This document shows, one piece after another, positions 24,036 through 30,575 of a stretch of 64,000 nucleotides of DNA; the stretch's first letter is position 1, and each line of letters begins with the position of its first letter. The translations under genes were made by a program, and so were the position numbers. The DNA comes from an uncultured Chloroflexia bacterium. GTDB taxonomy: Bacteria > Chloroflexota > Ktedonobacteria > Ktedonobacterales > Ktedonobacteraceae. The stretch spans positions 1 to 64,000 of the forward strand of contig CAVZQK010000020.1 of assembly GCA_963777355.1 (NCBI GenBank). Direction: 5' to 3'. The notes beneath the pieces were generated by a model. The model saw only the letters and a program-made list of their open reading frames with translations, made no database searches and was not told the origin of the DNA.

Positions 24036-26619
24036 TTAGATGAATGGGCTTTGCCACAATTTCCTCTCGCCTGTTGAGGATTGAAACATGAGGATTGAAA
24101 CAATCTTGATCGGTGCTTCCCCAAGCCCTTGCACATGAATGCGCTGCTCATCATCAGGAAGCATATCCAGCATATTATCGCTCCAGCTCAGCTCTTTATC
24201 GGCTGAGAAAAAAACCCCTTTGGCTGGACGCTTCACACGCACGCGTAAGATATCTTCTTCGTTGCGCTCGACAGTCAGATCGGGATCTTTCAAAGGCAGA
24301 TATTTTAAGGGTTCAGGCCAGTATGCAGCTCTTGCAAGGACCTCGTCATTTACCGAGTAAACGCATCCCAAAAATGATCTGCTCTCCCTGCCGCCCACTA
24401 CCAAAGTGCCCCAGTTCTGTAGCCTGGTTGGGTAAGAGCTCAACACGACGCAGCTCCTCCGCGACCAGTTTCCCATCCACTGTCCACGCACGCAGCTCCA
24501 TCTCAAACTGACGAGGTACGGTCAAGCCGTTCACTGCCCACGCTGCTACCCCCTGCTCGTCTTTTGCGAGACCGGCAACCAGGGGCGCGAGCTCTCGTTT
24601 GACGACATAATAGGCCGGTTTGGCACGCAGATAGTAATCAACCAGCGCCCAACTTGTCACAGGCCAGCAGTCATTCAATTGCCAGATGAGTGCTCCCGCT
24701 ACATACTCTCGCCCCTCACCCGACCAGCGCCTCCGCCAGCCGCGTATACCCGCACCCATTGCCTCTGCCTGCAAAAGCTGGAGTAATATAGGTGTATCCC
24801 TCCAGATCAGCAGGCATGCGGAAGTTCTCTACGACATATGCGGCTAATCGCGACGGACCACCAGCGCTTTTATTGTGATGGTCTAGCGTCCGGCTCTGGG
24901 CATAGCGCTCCTCCTCTGGCGTAAAAGGATTTCATCGTCCTTTTGTCAGGAAAGCCTTCCATGCCAAATTCGCTGACGAATTGCCCGGCAAACTTCGGGT
25001 AATCCTGGTACGGGACCATGCCATGCCAGATGGTCCAGATATGCTGGTCGCCAATCGTCAGGTTATTGGCATCGCTATCCGTACCCCCAAAGGGGCTGCT
25101 CGGCCAGTAGGGGCGCGTAGGATCATAGGAGCCACAAACATCTGGCAACACTTCTTCATAAAGAGCACGTGCCGGAAAAGCACTGGTTGCGAAATCTCCA
25201 GTAAAATCTGGGATCGTAGACATTGACAGACCTGGCAAGCAAGTAGTCTTCGTTATTTCCCGCCCAGATGACAATTGAGGGATGATGGCGTAGCCGTCTC
25301 ACATTGGCTATAGCTTCGGCCCGCACACTCGTCTGCATCCACTGGGGCGCGGGATAAAGTCCACAAGCAAACATAAAATCTTGCCAGACGAGTAGCCCCA
25401 GTTCGTCGCAGAGATCATAAAATACGTCTTCTTCATAGTATCCACCACCCCAGACCCGCAACATTGTCATGTTGCCCTCTGCCGCTAGCTCTAGCCAGCG
25501 ACGATACTTTTCAGCGGTAACACGCGGCCCAAATGAATCGGCAGGAATCCAGTTCGCCCCTCCGCAAAAAATTGGTGTGTTGTTGATCTCAAAAAAGAAT
25601 GTTTTCCCCGGTTCATCTAGCAGGGGACGCTGGATAAGTTGCAAACGGCGCAATCCTAAGCGCAGCTCCTGTCCTGTAAGCTCTCTCTCCCCATTACGCA
25701 AACTTACGACCAGGCGGTATAATGCCTGCTCCCCATACCCACGCGGCCACCAGAGCTGCGGTTGCTGAAGCTCGAATGTATGGGATAACGACGCAAGACT
25801 GGCTGGCAATATCGCTCGATCAACCAGCTTACCATCAGGACTATATACTTCCAGGTGCAGCGAGAGGCCGCTGGTGTGAATCTCACCATCCAGCAGTACC
25901 TGTACCGGCAGGAGTGCGCTCTCCAGATCTTCTACAACCTCAACTGGACAGTGGACCTCTACGATACGAGCGGCATAGGCCTCCAACCGCACTCCACGCC
26001 AGATACCAGCAGTTATTAGCGTCGGACCCCAATCCCAGCCATAATGATACTGCGCTTTCCTCACATAGAGACGACTACTATCTCCATTCCAGCAAGGATA
26101 AGATTTACCGGCCTCAGCCTCGCGCGTCTTGCCCTGCTGCCAGGCTGAGGCAAAATTTATGGTCAGCTCATTTTCTCCTGGCCGCAAAAGCCCGGTTACC
26201 TGCACTTGATGCGGCAGAAACATGTTCTCGCTTATGAGAATCTGCTGCTCATTCAACCATACGGTTGCAAACGTATCCAACCCATCAAAACAAAGGAGGA
26301 TATGTTCATCCAGGGAGAGGAAATCTTCTGGCAGGGTGAACTGGCAGCGGTATAGCCAGTCCTGCTCACCAACCCATTGCACCTCTTGTTCTTGTAATCC
26401 ATAAAATGGCTCAGGAATAAGCTCATGAGCCAGCAGATCCAGGTGCACACACCCAGGCACGCTGGCAGAGCGCCAATTCTCAGAGAATGCCAGATCATCC
26501 TTCAGGGAAAGAGCTGGAGTACGCTGTTTAAATTGCCAATGCTCGCTAAGATGCAGAATTTTCATCAGTGTGAGTTCAACGCCTTTCGTTTTAACAGCCG
26601 TGCTCTCACAATATACCAT
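24036..26619 (-). pseudogene. GH2 beta-mannosidase, fragmented into at least 4 ORFs by frameshifts
   Basis: N-terminal fragment has GH2 sugar-binding/TIM-barrel motifs incl. 'QPQLWWPRGYGEQALYRL' (beta-mannosidase signature); successive C-terminal fragments in other frames; 14-bp perfect tandem duplication at 24075-24102 inside coding sequence. Confidence 0.7.
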
Positions 26620-26699
26620 TGTTTTGACGAAGCTCGCATCTCATCGTTCCCTATTACCAGCTAACACCGACTCCAACACATTGCCAGGGGCAAAAGGGT

Positions 26700-26833
26700 T
26701 CGCCCCACGCCTTCTTGCCTCTCCGACCAACCCCTTGTAGGGCAGATCGGCTTGCCCGTCTCCTGTTCGCCCCACGTCTTCTTGCCTCTCCGACCAACCC
26801 CCTGTAGGGCAGATCGGCTTGCCCGTCTCCTGT
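26700..26833. repeat. 67-bp tandem direct repeat x2 containing hairpin core GTAGGGCAGATCGGCTTGCCCGTCTCCTG (REP/MITE-like unit)
   Basis: two consecutive near-identical 67-bp units read directly. Confidence 0.8.
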
Positions 26834-27060
26834 TCACCGAGCGCTGCTCTCGCCCCACAACGGAAACGCGAAAGATATCTTTTGCCTCTCTTTCCCTCCT
26901 CACCCGAAAGAAAAGGGAGGGAGGGAGACCATTCATCTTTTAATTCATCCCTCTCCACTTCGCCCAGCGCTCCTCTCGCTTTTCAAAAAAGGGTCCAGGT
27001 AAGAGGGGGCGAGAGCAGCGCTCGGTGAACAGGAGACGGCCTAGCCGATCTACCCTACGG
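26822..27060. repeat. nested palindromic element: 26-bp inverted repeat TGTTCACCGAGCGCTGCTCTCGCCCC (26822-26847 / 27004-27033) flanking an internal GGGAGGGAGGGA hairpin, followed by a partial inverted copy of the REP-like core (27037-27060)
   Basis: read directly; lies in the 950-bp intergenic region between GH2 start and DAHP synthase. Confidence 0.7.
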
Positions 27061-27170
27061 AATTCTGTGGGGGACTGATGCTAGTATTGATCTCTGACAG
27101 TAAGCTTCGGATATACAGAGTATCTGCTAAGAGAGGCATTTTAGTAGCAAAAGTAACCGGTCATGGCCCC

Positions 27171-27199
27171 TTGACACATTTCTCATGCTCCGCTATACT
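27171..27199 (+). promoter_or_regulatory. sigma-70-type promoter: -35 TTGACA, 17-bp spacer, -10 TATACT
   Basis: consensus hexamers with optimal spacing, 70 nt upstream of leader-peptide ATG. Confidence 0.6.
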
Positions 27200-27272
27200 T
27201 TTTATAAGCAAGTAAAGAGTCGTCTGCTAAAAATAGTGTAGCCAGACGCTCCGGAAGAATTGAGAGATTTTT

Positions 27273-27335
27273 ATGCTCAGCCAATACAACAACACACAAT
27301 CTAGCTTTTATTATTGGTTTAGCCCTCCAGCATGA
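27273..27335 (+). CDS. candidate attenuation leader peptide MLSQYNNTQSSFYYWFSPPA (aromatic run F-Y-Y-W-F)
   Basis: 20-codon ORF whose 5 consecutive aromatic codons sit just upstream of a large hairpin (27325-27381) and an intrinsic terminator, immediately upstream of DAHP synthase. Confidence 0.6.
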   Translation: MLSQYNNTQSSFYYWFSPPA

Positions 27336-27383
27336 TGGTGGGCCCTTTGGGCTGAGAAAAAAATCCACCAGCATGCTGGAGAA

Positions 27384-27418
27384 GCAGAGGACGAAATGAC
27401 CTCTGCTTTTTTGTTTCT
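27384..27418 (+). terminator. intrinsic terminator (attenuator) upstream of DAHP synthase
   Basis: stem GCAGAGG/CCTCTGC followed by TTTTTTGTTTCTC. Confidence 0.6.
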
Positions 27419-27578
27419 CTGGAAATGTTCTCTGTTCATTTCAGGATCGCGGATTTCATGATGCAATTGCATCTCGATTTTATTGTCGGCATTGAAAAAC
27501 TCGCACTCTATCTAGTAGATCACGAGCGTTGCCAGGAGTGAGCGGGTTCAAGACACGTTCTATGAGAGGATACATCTG

Positions 27579-28646
27579 ATGATTATTACAATTCGTAGCC
27601 AGGCTAGCAGTGAAGAACGCGCACATCTAATGGCACTACTCTGCCGTATTACCGGTAGTAAGTCTCCCTTCACCACCACACAGACGCAGCAGCATGAGGT
27701 TATCGCCCTGGATGGTACACGCATCGATGCCGAAGCCCAGGCAGCGCTGAGCCAGCAAGATGCAGTTGAACATATTTTACAGCCCAAAACTTCCTACCAA
27801 CTGGTGAGCCGCGCTTTTCAGGCAGAAGATAGCCAGGTTGTTATTGGCGCAGGACGTGCCTGCTCTACAGCTACTGTAGGGGGCAAGTCCGCATCTCCAG
27901 TCATCATGGCAGGACCCTGCGCCGTTGAAAGCCGTGAACAATTGCTAGAGACTGCTCACGGCGTCGCTCAGGCGGGAGGACAGGTTCTGCGTGGGGGTGC
28001 TTTCAAACCTCGCACCTCTCCATACCAGTTCCAGGGCCTGGGCATTGAAGGATTGCATATGTTGGCAGATGCCCGTGAAGAGACCGGATTGCCGGTGATT
28101 ACGGAAGTCATGGAGCCAGGCATGGTCGAGACGGTGGCAGAATATGCCGACGTGTTGCAAATCGGCGCTCGCAATATGCAGAATTACCCCCTCTTGATAG
28201 CCGCTGGACGCCAACAACTCCCGATCCTGCTCAAACGTGGCCTCTCCTCAACTATCGAGGAATGGCTGCTTGCAGCAGAATACATTGTCGCCGCTGGCAA
28301 TCCTAATGTTATTCTCTGCGAACGGGGCATCCGCAGTTACGATCCTCAGACCCGCAACGTGCTTGACCTCAGTTGTGTCCCCCTCTTAAAAGAACTTACG
28401 CACCTGCCCATCATCGTTGATCCCAGCCACGCCACTGGACGCAGAGAGCTCGTCCCCATCATGTCACGGGCCAGCATTGCCGCCAACGCCGATGGCTTGA
28501 TTATCGAGGTCCATCCCGATCCCAATACAGCCCTCTGCGACGGCAAGCAATCGATTACACCTGCCCAGTTAGAGCGTATCATCCACGAGACACAGATGCT
28601 AACCCGTATGCTCAAGGGTGCGTTCAGCCTGGTCTCAGTCGCTTGA
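27579..28646 (+). CDS. aroG: 3-deoxy-D-arabino-heptulosonate 7-phosphate (DAHP) synthase, type I-beta (KDO8PS-like) with N-terminal regulatory domain
   Basis: '[19 protein letters not shown]', '[10 protein letters not shown]' core motifs of DAHPS/KDO8PS family; ~90-aa N-terminal extension like ferredoxin-like/ACT regulatory domains of Thermotoga-type DAHPS. Confidence 0.8.
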
Positions 28647-28972
28647 TATTACGGTCTCTCTCTTTGCAAAAGCGCCCGGTTCCTTCCCGTTCAATGCTGA
28701 ACTCTCGACTCACTGGAATGGTTATGATATACTCTCTGTACTAGGGGTAGATGTAGAACATTTCTGAGATGAGCGCGGTTTTTGCTGAAAATGCGCTGAT
28801 TGCAGACATGGTTTTGCGTGAAGATTTCATCTCTACGTCATTCAGGGTTTAGTCGTTCCGCTGAAAAACGGCTCCCTACTAGTTACTAGAGGGCGTTTCA
28901 AAACCAAGAGAGAAACGGCAATCCTCTCTCCGCCTGCCGGTGGGAGGCTTCTTGCCGTAGGATGGTGACATT

Positions 28973-29545
28973 ATGCCAACACGTGTGATTATTGCAGATG
29001 ATGAGACGATCCAGCGCATGGACTTACGCGATGTGCTGACGAAACAGGGATATCTGGTGATTGGCGAGGCCGGCGACGGTCTGAGCGCGGTCAACCTGGC
29101 ACGGGAGCTACGCCCTGATCTGGTAATTATGGATATTCGTATGCCCGATATGGATGGCATTGCCGCCGCCGAAACCCTTACACAGGAAAAAATTGCACCG
29201 GTGCTCTTGCTTACTGCTTTCGGCGATCAGCAACTCGTTGAACGTGCTAAAGAGGCAGGTGTGGTCAATTATATCGTCAAGCCGCTCCGTGAAAGCGAAG
29301 TTACACCTGCAATTGAAGTAGCCCTGGCTCGCTACAACGAGTTCCGTGCTCTGGAAGATAAAGCGCGTACGCTGACCGAGCAACTAGAGACACGAAAGAT
29401 TGTCGAACGCGCCAAAGGCTTGCTGATGCAGAAGCAGGGTCTTACCGAGCAGGAAGCGTTCCGCAAAATTCAGAAGGCAAGCATGAATAACCGCAAATCG
29501 ATGCGGGAAGTTGCTGAGGCCATCTTGCTGACAGACGAAATGTAG
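28973..29545 (+). CDS. response regulator with ANTAR RNA-binding output domain (PdtaR/AmiR-like)
   Basis: REC 'VIIADDE...LVIMDIRMPDMDG...VNYIVKP'; C-terminal 'LETRKIVERAKGLLMQKQGLTEQEAFRKIQKASMNNRKSMREVAEAIL' ANTAR motif. Confidence 0.8.
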   Translation: MPTRVIIADDETIQRMDLRDVLTKQGYLVIGEAGDGLSAVNLARELRPDLVIMDIRMPDMDGIAAAETLTQEKIAPVLLLTAFGDQQLVERAKEAGVVNYIVKPLRESEVTPAIEVALARYNEFRALEDKARTLTEQLETRKIVERAKGLLMQKQGLTEQEAFRKIQKASMNNRKSMREVAEAILLTDEM

Positions 29546-29618: not shown

Positions 29619-30575
29619 ATGTCATTGGCGACGAGTTCTCAAAAAACACAGATAGTCGGCATTCGTTTCCGCCCGGCTGGCCGTATCTACTACTTTGATC
29701 CCCAGGGACAGAGCTTTAGCACGGGCCAGTATGTCGTTGTTGAAACTGTTCGGGGTGTCGAAGCCGGACGGGTAGTGGTGGCCTCAAAATGGGTAGCCCC
29801 GGAGGATCTCAGCGATCCCCTGAAGCCAATTCTGCGTCTGGCAACTGAAGATGAACTGCGCATGATGCTCTCTTTCAAAAATAAGGAGAGGGATGCGCTA
29901 GCTCGTTGTGCCGAACGCGTGAAACAGCATAATCTACCTATGAAACTCGTTGAATCTGAGTATACCTTTGATGGTAGCCGCCTGACGTTCTACTTTACCG
30001 CCGACGAACGCGTCGATTTTCGCTCCCTTGTACGCGACCTGGCCGCGACGTTCCGCACACGCATCGAGCTGAGACAGATCGGCGCTCGCGACCAGGCGAA
30101 ACTACAAGGTGGCGTTGGTCCCTGTGGCAAAACACTCTGTTGTAGTTCCTGGATCACTGATTTTGGTATTGTTTCCATTAAAATGGCCAAAGAACAAGGC
30201 CTCCCACTTAATCCATCTAAAATTTCTGGCGTCTGTGGACGTTTAATGTGTTGTCTCTCGTATGAAAATGATAATTATATTCAAGCGAAACAGCAAATGC
30301 CTCAGCTTGGCACCATGCTGAATACTCCCAGCGGCAGTGGCAAGGTCGTCTCTGTCAATGTGCCACAAAACTCTGTTGAAGTTATGCTGGATAGCGGCGT
30401 TACTATTCAAATTCCCGTCGAGCCTCCGGCTGATCAACAAAAAAGTGGCGGCTCCTGTGCCAGTGGTGGCTGCGGTTCTTGCGGCTCTCAAGGGGGCTGT
30501 GGTTCTCAAGGGGGCTGTGGCTCATGCGGAGTCAAAAAGAAAGTCCAAAAAAATGATCTACTCCCTGAAGCATAA
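29619..30575 (+). CDS. PSP1 C-terminal domain protein (YaaT/RicT-like) with Gly/Cys-rich tandem-repeat tail
   Basis: PSP1 domain similarity through 'GKTLCCSSWITDFGIVSIKMAKEQGLPLNPSKISGVCGRLMCCLSYE'; tail 'GGCGSCGSQGGCGSQGGCGSCG' from 18-bp tandem repeat. Confidence 0.7.
   Translation: MSLATSSQKTQIVGIRFRPAGRIYYFDPQGQSFSTGQYVVVETVRGVEAGRVVVASKWVAPEDLSDPLKPILRLATEDELRMMLSFKNKERDALARCAERVKQHNLPMKLVESEYTFDGSRLTFYFTADERVDFRSLVRDLAATFRTRIELRQIGARDQAKLQGGVGPCGKTLCCSSWITDFGIVSIKMAKEQGLPLNPSKISGVCGRLMCCLSYENDNYIQAKQQMPQLGTMLNTPSGSGKVVSVNVPQNSVEVMLDSGVTIQIPVEPPADQQKSGGSCASGGCGSCGSQGGCGSQGGCGSCGVKKKVQKNDLLPEA

Follow-up and report, generated by a model that had tools for sequence, protein, structure and literature searches.

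How transcription of a DAHP synthase gene, which encodes the entry enzyme of the shikimate pathway, might be matched to the supply of aromatic amino acids in Chloroflexota is the question raised by the DNA upstream of aroG in the stretch analysed here (64,000 nucleotides from an uncultured Ktedonobacteraceae bacterium, hereafter the window). The gene lies on the forward strand at 27579..28646 and encodes a type I-beta DAHP synthase of 355 amino acids, identified by its matches to Pfam DAHP_synth_1 (2.5e-79) and NCBIfam NF006421 (residues 1-346) and by alignment of residues 36-342 to the Thermotoga maritima enzyme 1RZM. This alignment includes part of the N-terminal regulatory domain of that enzyme and, with the NF006421 match, bears out the N-terminal allosteric domain that a first-pass annotation of this DNA had proposed. 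The nearest AroG proteins are from Dictyobacter (74-75% identity), and in 18 Ktedonobacteria loci aroG is followed, in synteny, by genes for an ANTAR response regulator, 86-95% identical among these loci, and for PSP1. To our knowledge, leader-peptide attenuation has been worked out almost wholly in Proteobacteria, Firmicutes and a few Actinobacteria, and we know of almost no experimentally studied gene regulation in Chloroflexota.

A leader family upstream of aroG

A covariance model, R1, matched the window and 59 further loci with scores of 61-101 bits, all on the aroG strand and just upstream of this gene, in Ktedonobacteria, Limnocylindria and other Chloroflexota. The first-pass annotation had named conservation upstream of aroG orthologs as a check on its reading, and the aromatic ORF, the helix at its stop codon and the terminator are indeed kept in all 59 of these loci. 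Because this set of elements is conserved across Chloroflexota, the sequence comparison indicates that the aroG element is almost certainly a genuine feedback switch. Two subtypes are distinguished below, the Ktedonobacteria type, which includes the window, and a high-GC type. A search of positions 26000-29000 against Rfam with cmscan, at E-values up to 10, returned four chance matches only (two miRNA precursor families, a hairpin ribozyme and a snoRNA), which excludes a T-box and the known leader families (Trp_leader, Phe_leader, His_leader and others). Our literature search found no earlier description of such an element in Chloroflexota or Ktedonobacter.

The consensus promoter claimed in the first-pass annotation is present at 27171..27199 of the forward strand as a sigma-70-type site, TTGACA-17 nt-TATACT, with 11 of 12 consensus matches (-35 box at 27171-27176, -10 box at 27194-27199). 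By itself this site is not significant, since shuffles of the 1.4 kb searched yield an equal count (1.1 sites expected, 1 seen). TTGACA-17/18-TAnnnT is found at the equivalent position before the leader in relatives, and transcription would start near 27206. A weak Shine-Dalgarno-like GAGAGA (27262..27267, forward strand) can be read from the sequence 6-11 nt 5' of the leader AUG, where Ktedonobacteria relatives carry GGA or GAG about 10-13 nt 5' of theirs. The corresponding site of aroG is GAGAGGA (27564..27570, forward strand), which in relatives reads GAGAGGA or GAAAGGA.

Also found, at 27273..27335 of the forward strand, was the 20-codon ORF for which five consecutive aromatic codons had been claimed (MLSQYNNTQSSFYYWFSPPA, followed by UGA). 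Codons 12-16 (27306..27320) read UUU UAU UAU UGG UUU, that is, Phe-Tyr-Tyr-Trp-Phe, and just 3 of the 1323 small ORFs in the 64-kb window hold at least four consecutive aromatic residues. An in-frame AUG, an aromatic run and a stop are kept in 57 distinct sequences, which follow the pattern [F/Y/W]3-5-x-x-Pro-Ala-UGA behind a variable N-terminus. The aromatic runs among relatives include FYYWF, FWYWF, YWYWF, FYFYYWF, WYYYYF, FYF and YWF; their codons differ by synonymous UAU/UAC swaps and by aromatic-for-aromatic replacements, some of which require two nucleotide changes. Judged from these comparisons, the leader ORF is under coding selection, and its translation is predicted. Leaders of the high-GC type have only 11 codons and are apparently leaderless, with the aromatic codons at positions 4-7 and F-Y-F as the commonest run.

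Beyond the aromatic run, the end of the peptide is nearly constant. The last aromatic codon lies four codons (x-x-P-A) from the stop in 51 of the 57 sequences, Pro-Ala-UGA closes 50, and the stop is UGA in 54; exceptions to the C-terminal motif are P-T-UGA (L097), P-A-R-stop (L050, L102) and SPPT... (L013, L014). Three Ala codons (GCA, GCC, GCU) and two Pro codons encode the conserved Pro-Ala, and wherever the Ala codon differs, the 3' arm of the stop-codon helix, here called P_c, has changed to match. As the bases of Pro-Ala-UGA also pair in P_c, constraint at the RNA level and constraint at the peptide level are inseparable at this site. An AUG overlaps the leader stop in 51 of the 57 sequences, and in 44 of these 51 it opens a mini-ORF of 6-7 codons; the putative copy in the window, mini-ORF2 (AUG-AUG-GUG-GGC-CCU-UUG-GGC-UGA, MMVGPLG; 27332..27355, forward strand), begins within AUGA, where the two frames overlap, and has its own stop in the apical region of the helix.

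Stop-codon helix, terminator and long-range pairing

Folding places a strong helix over the end of the leader ORF. The 5' arm of P_c (27325..27341, forward strand) takes in the Pro-Pro-Ala codons together with the UGA (27333-27335), and its 3' arm (CCACCAGCAUGCUGGAG) occupies 27365..27381 of the same strand; the hairpin had been described as 17 bp overlapping the stop, and it comprises 16 bp and one A.G mismatch. Atop it sits a 4-bp inner hairpin, GCCC-UUU-GGGC (27342..27352, forward strand), whose apical pair covaries (CG 16, UA 3, AU 1). P_c folds at -32.3 kcal/mol (z -4.5), a value equalled by none of 200 shuffles, and none of the 57 distinct relatives lacks the helix. Compensatory changes in P_c include UA/CG, AU/GC and GC/AU, and in the consensus fold such changes affect 9 of 21 pairs, P_c and terminator flanks taken together. 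By folding and covariation, P_c is a real helix. Family-wide, it begins 1-5 nt past the last aromatic codon (4 nt in the window) and carries the stop codon within its 5' arm. Codon choice for Phe is skewed in high-GC members: all 25 final Phe codons are UUU, whereas UUC accounts for 30 of the 33 others; because the bias to UUU in the last codon fits pairing with the linker, a basal extension of P_c is supported for these members, in which this codon would pair with the linker adjoining the terminator (UUUCG:CGAAG).

Both arms of P_c also have local alternatives. The sequence at 27322..27343 of the forward strand can form a hairpin, H_stop (GCCCUCCA-GCAUGA-UGGUGGGC, -11.3 kcal/mol), with Ala-UGA in its loop, and L087 has a compensated form of it (GCCCUCCG-GCCUGA-CGGAGGGC). 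H_stop could act as a kinetic trap once the ribosome has been released. Within the 3' arm, the palindrome CCAGCAUGCUGG can form a weak local hairpin, H_4 (-4.1 kcal/mol), which has equivalents in the high-GC type (GGCACG-GGU-CGUGCC) and in family C, a sister family.

Directly after P_c, at 27382..27416 of the forward strand, stands an intrinsic terminator of -13.0 kcal/mol, in agreement with the stem and U6 previously noted some 160 nt before aroG. Its GC-rich stem of 9 bp (AAGCAGAGG/CCUCUGCUU; 27382-27390 paired with 27400-27408) encloses a 9-nt loop and runs into U6-G-UUU (U6 at 27407-27412, then GUUU). A simple terminator scan missed it, since the loop limit there was 8 nt; in a strict scan it was the only perfect-stem terminator in the 64 kb. 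The 7-bp core GCAGAGG/CCUCUGC is identical in 56 of 56 sequences, the flanking pairs covary (AU/GU/GC), and the loop varies in sequence and in length (5-9 nt). P_c and the terminator are separated by a linker of 0-4 nt in 57 of 57 sequences and by 0 nt in 27; in the window, too, it is 0 nt. The same abutment is seen in the sister families B and C, in which the sequences of helix and terminator are unrelated. A hairpin arm in the 5'-UTR of the window (GUCGUCUGCU), complementary at 9 of 10 positions to the terminator arm, occurs in no relative and was taken as chance.

A further pairing, P0, is supported by covariation and would bring the apex of P_c into contact with the 5' end of the ORF. Its 5' strand (UGCUCAGCC; 27274..27282, forward strand) overlaps the start codon and pairs with GGCUGAGAA at 27350..27358 of the forward strand, in the apical loop of P_c, where it competes with the inner hairpin. 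In alignment A1 the cells of this helix (helix 2) are 90% paired, with a CAC/GUG compensation in L007, and L087, L094, L013 and L014 carry unrelated yet complementary sequences at both places. The P0 duplex is better than that of shuffles (fraction at most 0.05) in 10 of 12 leaders. A helix P1, between the 5' end of the ORF and the aromatic codons, appears in the minimum-energy fold of the window; it was considered as a family feature and rejected, being significant in the window only (fraction at most 0.01) and not in 11 others.

A proposed route from ribosome position to termination

Leader-peptide attenuators are expected to switch between exclusive folds, and the first-pass annotation had likened this layout to the pheA and trp leaders. 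The part of this claim that stands is a leader-peptide attenuator for DAHP synthase, whose parts are conserved in 59 loci; the pheA/trp-like overlap does not. No nucleotide is common to P_c and the terminator. The two are additive in energy (-32.3 and -13.0 kcal/mol alone, -47.1 kcal/mol together) and stand side by side in the minimum-energy fold at -47.1 kcal/mol. By the refuting condition named in the first-pass annotation, hairpins unable to alternate, a simple alternation thus fails, and the coupling of the two hairpins must be steric or kinetic, or is still to be found. Folds computed with either the aromatic codons or the stop codon covered by a ribosome footprint lead to a similar view, as freeing the 5' arm of the terminator then costs just about 1-5 kcal/mol. 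With the footprint on the aromatic codons this arm is essentially free in both subtypes, and no structure was found that would sequester a terminator arm during such a stall. Frameshifting at hungry U-rich codons, carrying translation through the terminator, was likewise rejected: of the 26 leaders of the Ktedonobacteria type, 11 close the +1 frame before the terminator, and an early stop ends the -1 frame in every case.

On grounds of geometry, the arrangement fits a scheme in which one RNA fold or another is chosen according to whether the ribosome stands on the regulatory codons or has reached the stop. Probably, we think, the element belongs to the broad class of ribosome-controlled attenuators with P_c as the switch helix, and it probably couples transcription of aroG to the supply of charged Phe-, Tyr- and Trp-tRNA. 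From the parts observed, their conservation, covariation and geometry, we infer the following direction of regulation. After transcription from about 27206, a ribosome would translate the 20-codon leader. When aromatic aminoacyl-tRNAs are ample, it would reach UGA and unwind P_c, because UGA lies within the 5' arm; the freed arms could then fold into H_stop and H_4, the terminator at 27382-27416 would be completed, and transcription would stop before aroG. When an aromatic codon is hungry, the ribosome would wait at 27306-27320 with P_c intact, since the helix begins 4 nt past the last aromatic codon, beyond the leading edge of the ribosome. The strand 27274-27282, lying behind the stalled ribosome, could then pair with the apex of P_c as P0 and lock the structure.

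The last step is the most tentative. As the end of P_c is the start of the terminator stem, an intact P_c might keep the last base pairs of the terminator from closing in the exit channel of RNA polymerase and so permit read-through to aroG, the block being steric (by abutment) and requiring no sequence overlap. In E. coli, a terminator hairpin is repressed when a ribosome comes to within about 10-15 nt of it, and termination requires that the last 2-3 bp of the hairpin close (PMC4824070). We found no direct precedent for steric exclusion within the exit channel itself, and the abutment model leaves the invariant 7-bp core of the terminator unexplained. Taken on its own, we give this step somewhat less than an even chance of being correct. 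That it amounts to a general design, in which a helix spared by the stalled ribosome and melted at the stop sterically blocks the adjacent terminator because the exit channel has no room for two helices, with P0 ringing the mRNA around the stalled ribosome, and which is common to three sequence-unrelated Chloroflexota families, is possible and, on present sequences, a little less probable still.

Four other readings were weighed against this one. An attenuator of the canonical trp/pheA or his type, in which an antiterminator sharing nucleotides with the 5' arm of the terminator forms when the stalled ribosome masks a competitor, would draw on the same parts list of regulatory-codon leader, stop-proximal helix and terminator; H_stop and H_4 recall the local alternatives of multi-segment attenuators, and overlapping designs do precede aroG in other phyla (e.g. 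L099, L059). We regard it as quite unlikely nonetheless. P_c does not overlap the terminator here, and a his-like relay from the freed 3' arm of P_c to the 5' arm of the terminator was rejected, their complementarity being at shuffle level (mean -5.2 against -4.8 kcal/mol). A pseudoknot between the loop of the inner hairpin (CCUUUG) and the terminator arm (CAGAGG) reaches -8.2 kcal/mol in most main-type leaders and is missing in L085, L089 and the high-GC type, and a position-anchored scan yielded no conserved partner for either terminator arm that is common to both subtypes and accessible during a stall. An arrest or slow-termination peptide, which we hold to be improbable, would instead use an antiterminator made only on the ribosome-free leader, a composite helix with the aromatic codons and the 5' arm of P_c on one strand and, on the other, the 3' arm of P_c and the 5' arm of the terminator. 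In abundance the ribosome would be held at Pro-Ala-UGA, by poor termination context or by TnaC-like peptide sensing of the free amino acid, and the helix would stay open until termination; in scarcity the ribosome would leave fast, either released promptly or lost at a hungry codon when its very short peptidyl-tRNA drops off, and the helix would bring read-through. Such a scheme gains from the high-GC members, where the sole structure sequestering the 5' arm of the terminator, at a cost of 5-9 kcal/mol, uses the aromatic codons, so that it requires a leader free of ribosomes; by itself it predicts the wrong sign for a stalled one, which tells against the main reading. It would also account for the invariant purine-rich terminator arm as the complement of Phe/Tyr codons, and it is in keeping with the constant distance from the aromatic residues to the C-terminus, with the short, leaderless-looking ORFs of the high-GC type and with a Pro-Ala-UGA conserved as amino acids through three Ala and two Pro codons, the stop being UGA in 54 of 57. 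In the Ktedonobacteria type, window included, the pairing of aromatic codons with the terminator arm is weak, however, at 0.2-4 kcal/mol (0.3-3.2 kcal/mol with P0 imposed, a form rejected on that ground). Moreover, the aromatic run is free in order and length, as is typical of regulatory codons and not of a ligand-binding arrest peptide, the C-terminal motif has the exceptions given above, and CCN-GCA-UGA is constrained by pairing in P_c too, which leaves conservation of the peptide itself unproven.

In a third reading the terminator could be constitutive or merely leaky and the leader and P_c would act elsewhere, with P_c as a pause hairpin that synchronises transcription and translation, or with translational control through pairing of the 3' arm of P_c to sequence past the terminator, near the ribosome-binding site of aroG. 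Resemblances of this kind exist: in the high-GC type, sequences after the terminator are complementary to the 3' arm of P_c when read by eye (e.g. CGGGC/GCCCG, GGUCG/UGACC), and AGAGGA in the terminator arm is similar to the aroG Shine-Dalgarno GAGAGGA. In many relatives, however, aroG starts only 28-60 nt past the U-tract, which leaves no room for a second promoter, so that read-through must feed aroG; in the Ktedonobacteria type the spacer between terminator and aroG is unconserved, and we judge this reading very unlikely. Less probable still, with hardly any chance in our estimate, is a trans-acting RNA-binding protein that sets read-through on the leader hairpins or the invariant stem. ANTAR regulators are known antiterminators whose targets are two hexaloop hairpins in tandem, the second overlapping the terminator. 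The candidate is the ANTAR regulator encoded directly downstream of aroG; its synteny in Ktedonobacteria speaks for it, and contact with a protein could account for the invariant stem. Yet the ANTAR gene is absent from the fetched flanks of high-GC members, which have the same stem, and no Rfam family was matched. The loop of H_stop has 6 nt (GCAUGA), whereas that of the terminator varies between 5 and 9 nt.

The probable attenuator set beside known systems

With this element, the Chloroflexota gain a defined attenuator family of 60 instances, described by a covariance model, at the entry enzyme of the shikimate pathway. The R1 model may help annotators of Ktedonobacteria and Limnocylindria genomes to find small ORFs and premature terminators that have gone unannotated, and the leader offers a handle for deregulating aromatic biosynthesis in these producers of secondary metabolites. 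The first-pass annotation remarked, fairly, that such leaders are seldom annotated outside Proteobacteria and Firmicutes, but aromatic leaders before DAHP synthase genes have already been described in Corynebacterium (aroR; PMC11802643, PMC4046766) and Acholeplasma (uORFC-13-1; PMC8632094). In Corynebacterium glutamicum, aroR, a leader with Phe-Tyr-Phe, attenuates aroF, with increased read-through under Phe limitation (Neshat et al. 2014, as related in PMC11802643 and PMC4046766). In Acholeplasma, uORFC-13-1 is a computationally identified uORF, U-rich and with Phe codons, directly before the intrinsic terminator of the DAHP synthase gene aroF and with one further conserved base-paired substructure (PMC8632094). 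It differs from the Chloroflexota element in lineage and sequence and has no known relation to an architecture of P_c, P0 and invariant stem. The Corynebacterium leader, which we set beside this family by description only, shares a Phe-Tyr-Phe run before a DAHP synthase gene and belongs to another phylum, Actinomycetota. Its target enzyme may be of a different class.

The trp, pheA and his attenuators of E. coli resemble the aroG leader in having a short ORF with codons for the end product and a terminator before the structural gene, and in that the downstream fold depends on whether the ribosome is at the regulatory codons or has come to the stop. In the aroG leader, unlike in these, the stop-codon helix and the terminator abut (0-4 nt) and do not overlap, a covarying helix, P0, bridges the 5' end of the ORF and the P_c apex, the terminator core is invariant in sequence, and no Rfam leader family is matched. 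The textbook expectation of overlap between antiterminator and terminator is broken here, either by a new physical principle (abutment with steric exclusion) or by a stall at the level of the peptide. For the latter, TnaC offers a likeness, with conserved residues before UGA (Pro-UGA in TnaC, Pro-Ala-UGA in the leader) and aromatic residues a fixed distance upstream. TnaC acts through Rho-dependent termination and induces a catabolic operon. The aroG leader, in contrast, has an intrinsic terminator and precedes a biosynthetic gene, and the nucleotides in question are constrained by P_c as well.

For the former, a likeness lies in pyrBI and in the repression that a ribosome close by exerts on intrinsic terminators (Li et al. 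2016, PMC4824070), where a bulky object prevents the bottom of the terminator hairpin from closing. There, the ribosome itself adjoins the hairpin on a continuous coding sequence, whereas in the aroG leader 46 nt separate the stop codon from the terminator stem downstream of it, and the blocker that we propose is an RNA helix dependent on the ribosome. If true, abutment would be a third way of coupling ribosome position to intrinsic termination, besides overlapping hairpins and direct occlusion by the ribosome.

An aromatic leader family upstream of aroG

The promoter, short ORF, hairpin, terminator and aroG gene reported by the first-pass annotation are all present at the positions that it gave. 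The promoter (TTGACA-17-TATACT, 27171-27199, + strand) matches 11 of 12 consensus positions, although a consensus promoter by itself has a frequency no lower than in shuffled sequence. By translation, the leader ORF (27273-27335, +) encodes the peptide MLSQYNNTQSSFYYWFSPPA, which carries the run FYYWF; at least four consecutive aromatic residues occur in only 3 of the 1323 small ORFs of the whole window. Downstream, aroG (+ strand, start 27579, ~160 nt past the terminator) encodes a type I-beta DAHP synthase. The source of the window is a member of the Ktedonobacteria (Chloroflexota), and the closest AroG is that of Dictyobacter (74-75% identity). The N-terminal allosteric domain previously attributed to this enzyme is real, since the matches to NF006421 (residues 1-346) and to Thermotoga maritima 1RZM (from residue 36) reach it.

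Conservation of the FYYWF ORF in related genomes, which the same annotation had proposed to examine, was found: all orthologous Ktedonobacterales loci retrieved with their upstream flank intact carry, 100-320 nt before aroG, a short ORF whose end reads ...FYYWFSPPA-UGA. The leader is absent before more distant aroG paralogues of the same order (L072, L080). The same module occurs in high-GC Chloroflexota (Limnocylindria, MAGs labelled 'Chloroflexia' and one MAG labelled Polarisedimenticolia), where the leaders have 11 codons (for example MNHFFYFRCPA, MSHFFYFPSPA and MNAPYWFTPPA), and in soil metagenomes. The covariance model R1, built from the 56 distinct sequences of the family alignment A2, gives the window 79.9 bits and 59 other loci 61-101 bits; every hit lies directly before aroG and on the same strand as that gene. 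R1 also matches two weaker sister families, B and C, at 20-42 bits (leaders such as MQKRPQAYSYWFTYGMTGLPRRR and MTFQWFYG, respectively). Their helix and terminator sequences differ from those of the main family, but in both a helix beginning at or just past the aromatic codons abuts the terminator with a gap of 0-2 nt. The leader family is clearly real, and it spans a phylum in a poorly studied group.

Several features point to the aromatic run being read as codons. Neither the sequence nor the length of the N-terminal part of the leader is constant (20-35 codons in the Ktedonobacteria type, to which the window belongs, and 11-12 in the high-GC type), and despite this the AUG, the aromatic run and the stop are always in frame. 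UAU and UAC interchange within the run, and some aromatic-for-aromatic replacements among the runs seen (FYYWF, FWYWF, YWYWF, FYFYYWF, WYYYYF, FYF, FFYF, YWF, WFYF) require two nucleotide changes. Phe, Tyr and Trp are all represented, which suits a common-pathway enzyme. The consensus leader end is [F/Y/W]3-5-x-x-Pro-Ala-UGA, with exactly four codons between the last aromatic codon and the stop in 51 of 57 members; Pro-Ala is retained with the Ala codons GCA, GCC (L087) and GCU (L094), each compensated on the opposite strand. In high-GC members (L015-L070, L097-L148) the AUG lies ~10-14 nt past the -10 box and no Shine-Dalgarno precedes it, which gives these 11-codon leaders a leaderless appearance.

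An AUG that overlaps the leader stop (AUGA) opens a 7-codon ORF, MMVGPLG (27332-27355, +), with its UGA in the apical region. Of 57 family members, 51 have such an overlapping AUG, and its ORF has 6-7 codons in 44 of these. By eye, every high-GC inner-hairpin loop inspected contains a stop triplet, and the leader ORF itself extends to the apical loop in L013, L014 and sister family B.

Past aroG lie a REC+ANTAR response regulator gene (28973-29545, +) and a PSP1-domain gene (29619-30575, +), an order common to 18 Ktedonobacteria loci, among which the regulator is 86-95% identical, far above the conservation of AroG. ANTAR regulators also adjoin aroG leaders of another type in L105, L115 and L151. 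A GC-rich imperfect inverted repeat of ~90 nt (26949-27039, +) lies in the divergent intergenic region that separates the leader promoter from the GH2 gene (25156-26619, minus strand); it gave a spurious mir-609 match of 25 bits in the Rfam search. The 160-nt spacer before aroG, longer than that of most relatives, contains a second small terminator-like hairpin, GAUGCAAUUGCAUC, with a U-rich tail (27460-27482, +); no counterpart is visible in the relatives' spacer sequences.

Stop-codon helix, terminator and long-range pairing

The stop-codon helix P_c (27325-27341 / 27365-27381, +) has 16 bp, one mismatch and a 4-bp inner hairpin cap (-32.3 kcal/mol, z -4.5). Its 5' arm carries x2-Pro-Ala-UGA and hence the leader stop. 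P_c is predicted in 57 of 57 family sequences, always beginning 1-5 nt past the last aromatic codon and with the stop codon within its 5' arm. Pairs covary at positions -7 (UA 22, CG 34), -4 (AU 20, GC 35) and -3 (GC 49, AU 3, GU 5), as does the apical pair of the inner hairpin (CG, UA, AU), and RNAalifold finds compensatory changes in 9 of the 21 consensus pairs of P_c and the terminator flanks. Each arm also has a local alternative: H_stop (27322-27343; -11.3 kcal/mol), which has a compensated form in L087, and H_4 in the 3' arm (-4.1 kcal/mol).

The intrinsic terminator (27382-27416, +) consists of a 9-bp stem, AAGCAGAGG / CCUCUGCUU, followed by U6-G-UUU (-13.0 kcal/mol). It was the sole match in 64 kb to a strict scan (perfect stem of at least 6 bp, loop of 3-9 nt, at least 5 U), and terminators of the canonical kind may be scarce in the genome. 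Its flanking pairs covary (AU, GU, GC), as does the neighbouring helix, whereas 56 of 56 distinct leaders share one 7-bp core (GCAGAGG/CCUCUGC) and one tail (UUUUUUGUUU; A2 columns 96-130), although they come from lineages with AroG identity of only ~50-75%. The gap between the P_c 3' arm and the terminator stem is 0-4 nt, and 0 nt in 27 of 57 sequences, the window among them.

A long-range helix, P0, pairs 27274-27282 (UGCUCAGCC, overlapping the start codon) with 27350-27358 in the P_c apical loop (+). Its cells are paired in 90-98% across 21 main-type sequences, where slid controls of the whole structure give 31-56%, and its duplex is better than shuffles (fraction at most 0.05) in 10 of 12 sequences tested. 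L007 shows a CAC/GUG compensation, and four divergent members have unrelated yet complementary strands in the two corresponding positions (AACCCAAC:GUUGGGUU, ACCACA:UGUGGU, ACCAAGCCC:GGGCUUGGU and ACCAGGCCCAAG:CUUGGGCUGGGU). Because P0 crosses P_c, a structure with both helices would be a pseudoknot. In every case the P0 5' strand precedes the aromatic run by 6-27 nt, which places it just to the rear of a ribosome stalled on those codons.

Candidate switching mechanisms

Likening this leader to pheA and trp held for its kind, a leader-peptide attenuator, and failed for its layout: P_c and the terminator have no common nucleotide, and they are additive in energy (-32.3 and -13.0 kcal/mol apart, -47.1 kcal/mol together). 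No position-conserved partner of either terminator arm was supported as a family feature, and neither were a relay via the P_c 3' arm, a pseudoknot between loop and terminator, a partner in the 5'-UTR, or frameshifting through the terminator. Geometry, not overlap, is what the family conserves. A 5'-UTR hairpin (27217-27251, +) has a 5' arm, GUCGUCUGCU, complementary at 9 of 10 positions to the terminator arm AGCAGAGGAC; relatives' UTRs carry different hairpins, and the complementarity is probably chance.

A translating ribosome unwinds the mRNA as far as roughly +11 to +13, counted from the P-site. While it waits at any aromatic codon P_c would stay intact, its leading edge just touching the P_c base at the last one; at the UGA it would unwind the whole 5' arm. 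P_c would therefore distinguish the two states, and since stalling at a biosynthetic gene must mean read-through, the helix, when intact, must work against termination. We consider it fairly likely that the element is a ribosome-mediated attenuator switched by P_c. With abutment as the sole conserved link, and no nucleotide in common, we infer tentatively, as a step less likely than not, that P_c blocks the terminator sterically. Closure of the last 2-3 bp of a terminator hairpin is essential (discussed in PMC4824070). The hairpin base has to close deep within the RNA exit channel, where a rigid, GC-rich P_c, joined without a linker to the terminator 5' strand, could not follow that strand. 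With the ribosome over the aromatic codons, P0 could form and would clamp the P_c apex; after its passage, H_stop and H_4 would trap the P_c arms, committing the transcript to termination.

The main rival makes a ribosome-free composite helix the antiterminator, with the conserved Pro-Ala-UGA holding the ribosome by arrest or slow termination when aromatic amino acids are abundant and, optionally, ribosome drop-off at hungry codons in very short leaders. It accounts better for the invariant purine-rich terminator arm. We calculated the cost of freeing the terminator 5' arm under three ribosome footprints, in transcripts truncated before the 3' arm. In the high-GC type this costs 5-9 kcal/mol only without a ribosome, when the aromatic and the two next codons pair with the linker and terminator arm (CUUCU:AGAGG, UUUCG:CGAAG), extending P_c; once a ribosome occupies the first aromatic codon, the cost falls to ~1 kcal/mol. 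On codon usage, the basal part of this extension is probably real, because the last Phe codon is the rare UUU in 25 of 25 high-GC leaders, versus UUC for 30 of 33 other Phe codons. The arrest model fits the Ktedonobacteria type poorly; there every state costs 0.2-6 kcal/mol (0.6-1.5 in the window). With its unusual architecture, the leader allows the mechanistic question to be put to a direct test on an RNA of 110 nt.

Relation to known attenuators

As a category, attenuation of a DAHP synthase through an amino-acid leader is already known. Precedents with the same target are aroR of C. glutamicum (Phe-Tyr-Phe; PMC11802643, PMC4046766) and the uORFC-13-1 motif of Acholeplasma (PMC8632094). No Rfam family matches the element, and our search found no account of such a leader for Chloroflexota in the literature that it covered. 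Unrelated aromatic-rich leader ORFs with terminators (for example MSRFDAKSFTYWYWGFTRSG and MAAYAxSFxWFRFW...) precede aroG in Acidobacteriota (Bryobacteraceae), Calditrichota, Phycisphaerae and other phyla (L026, L033, L049, L051, L059, L078, L079, L099, L105, L134, L138, L144, L145, L157), so the control of type I-beta DAHP synthases by aromatic leaders seems widespread and largely unannotated. Several of these, from Acidobacteriota and other phyla, have canonical overlapping antiterminators, in contrast to the Chloroflexota families. By function the element belongs with the leader-peptide attenuators. It departs from the trp/pheA class in one defining feature, since in that class the antiterminator overlaps the terminator, and adds the P0 pairing and the invariant terminator core.
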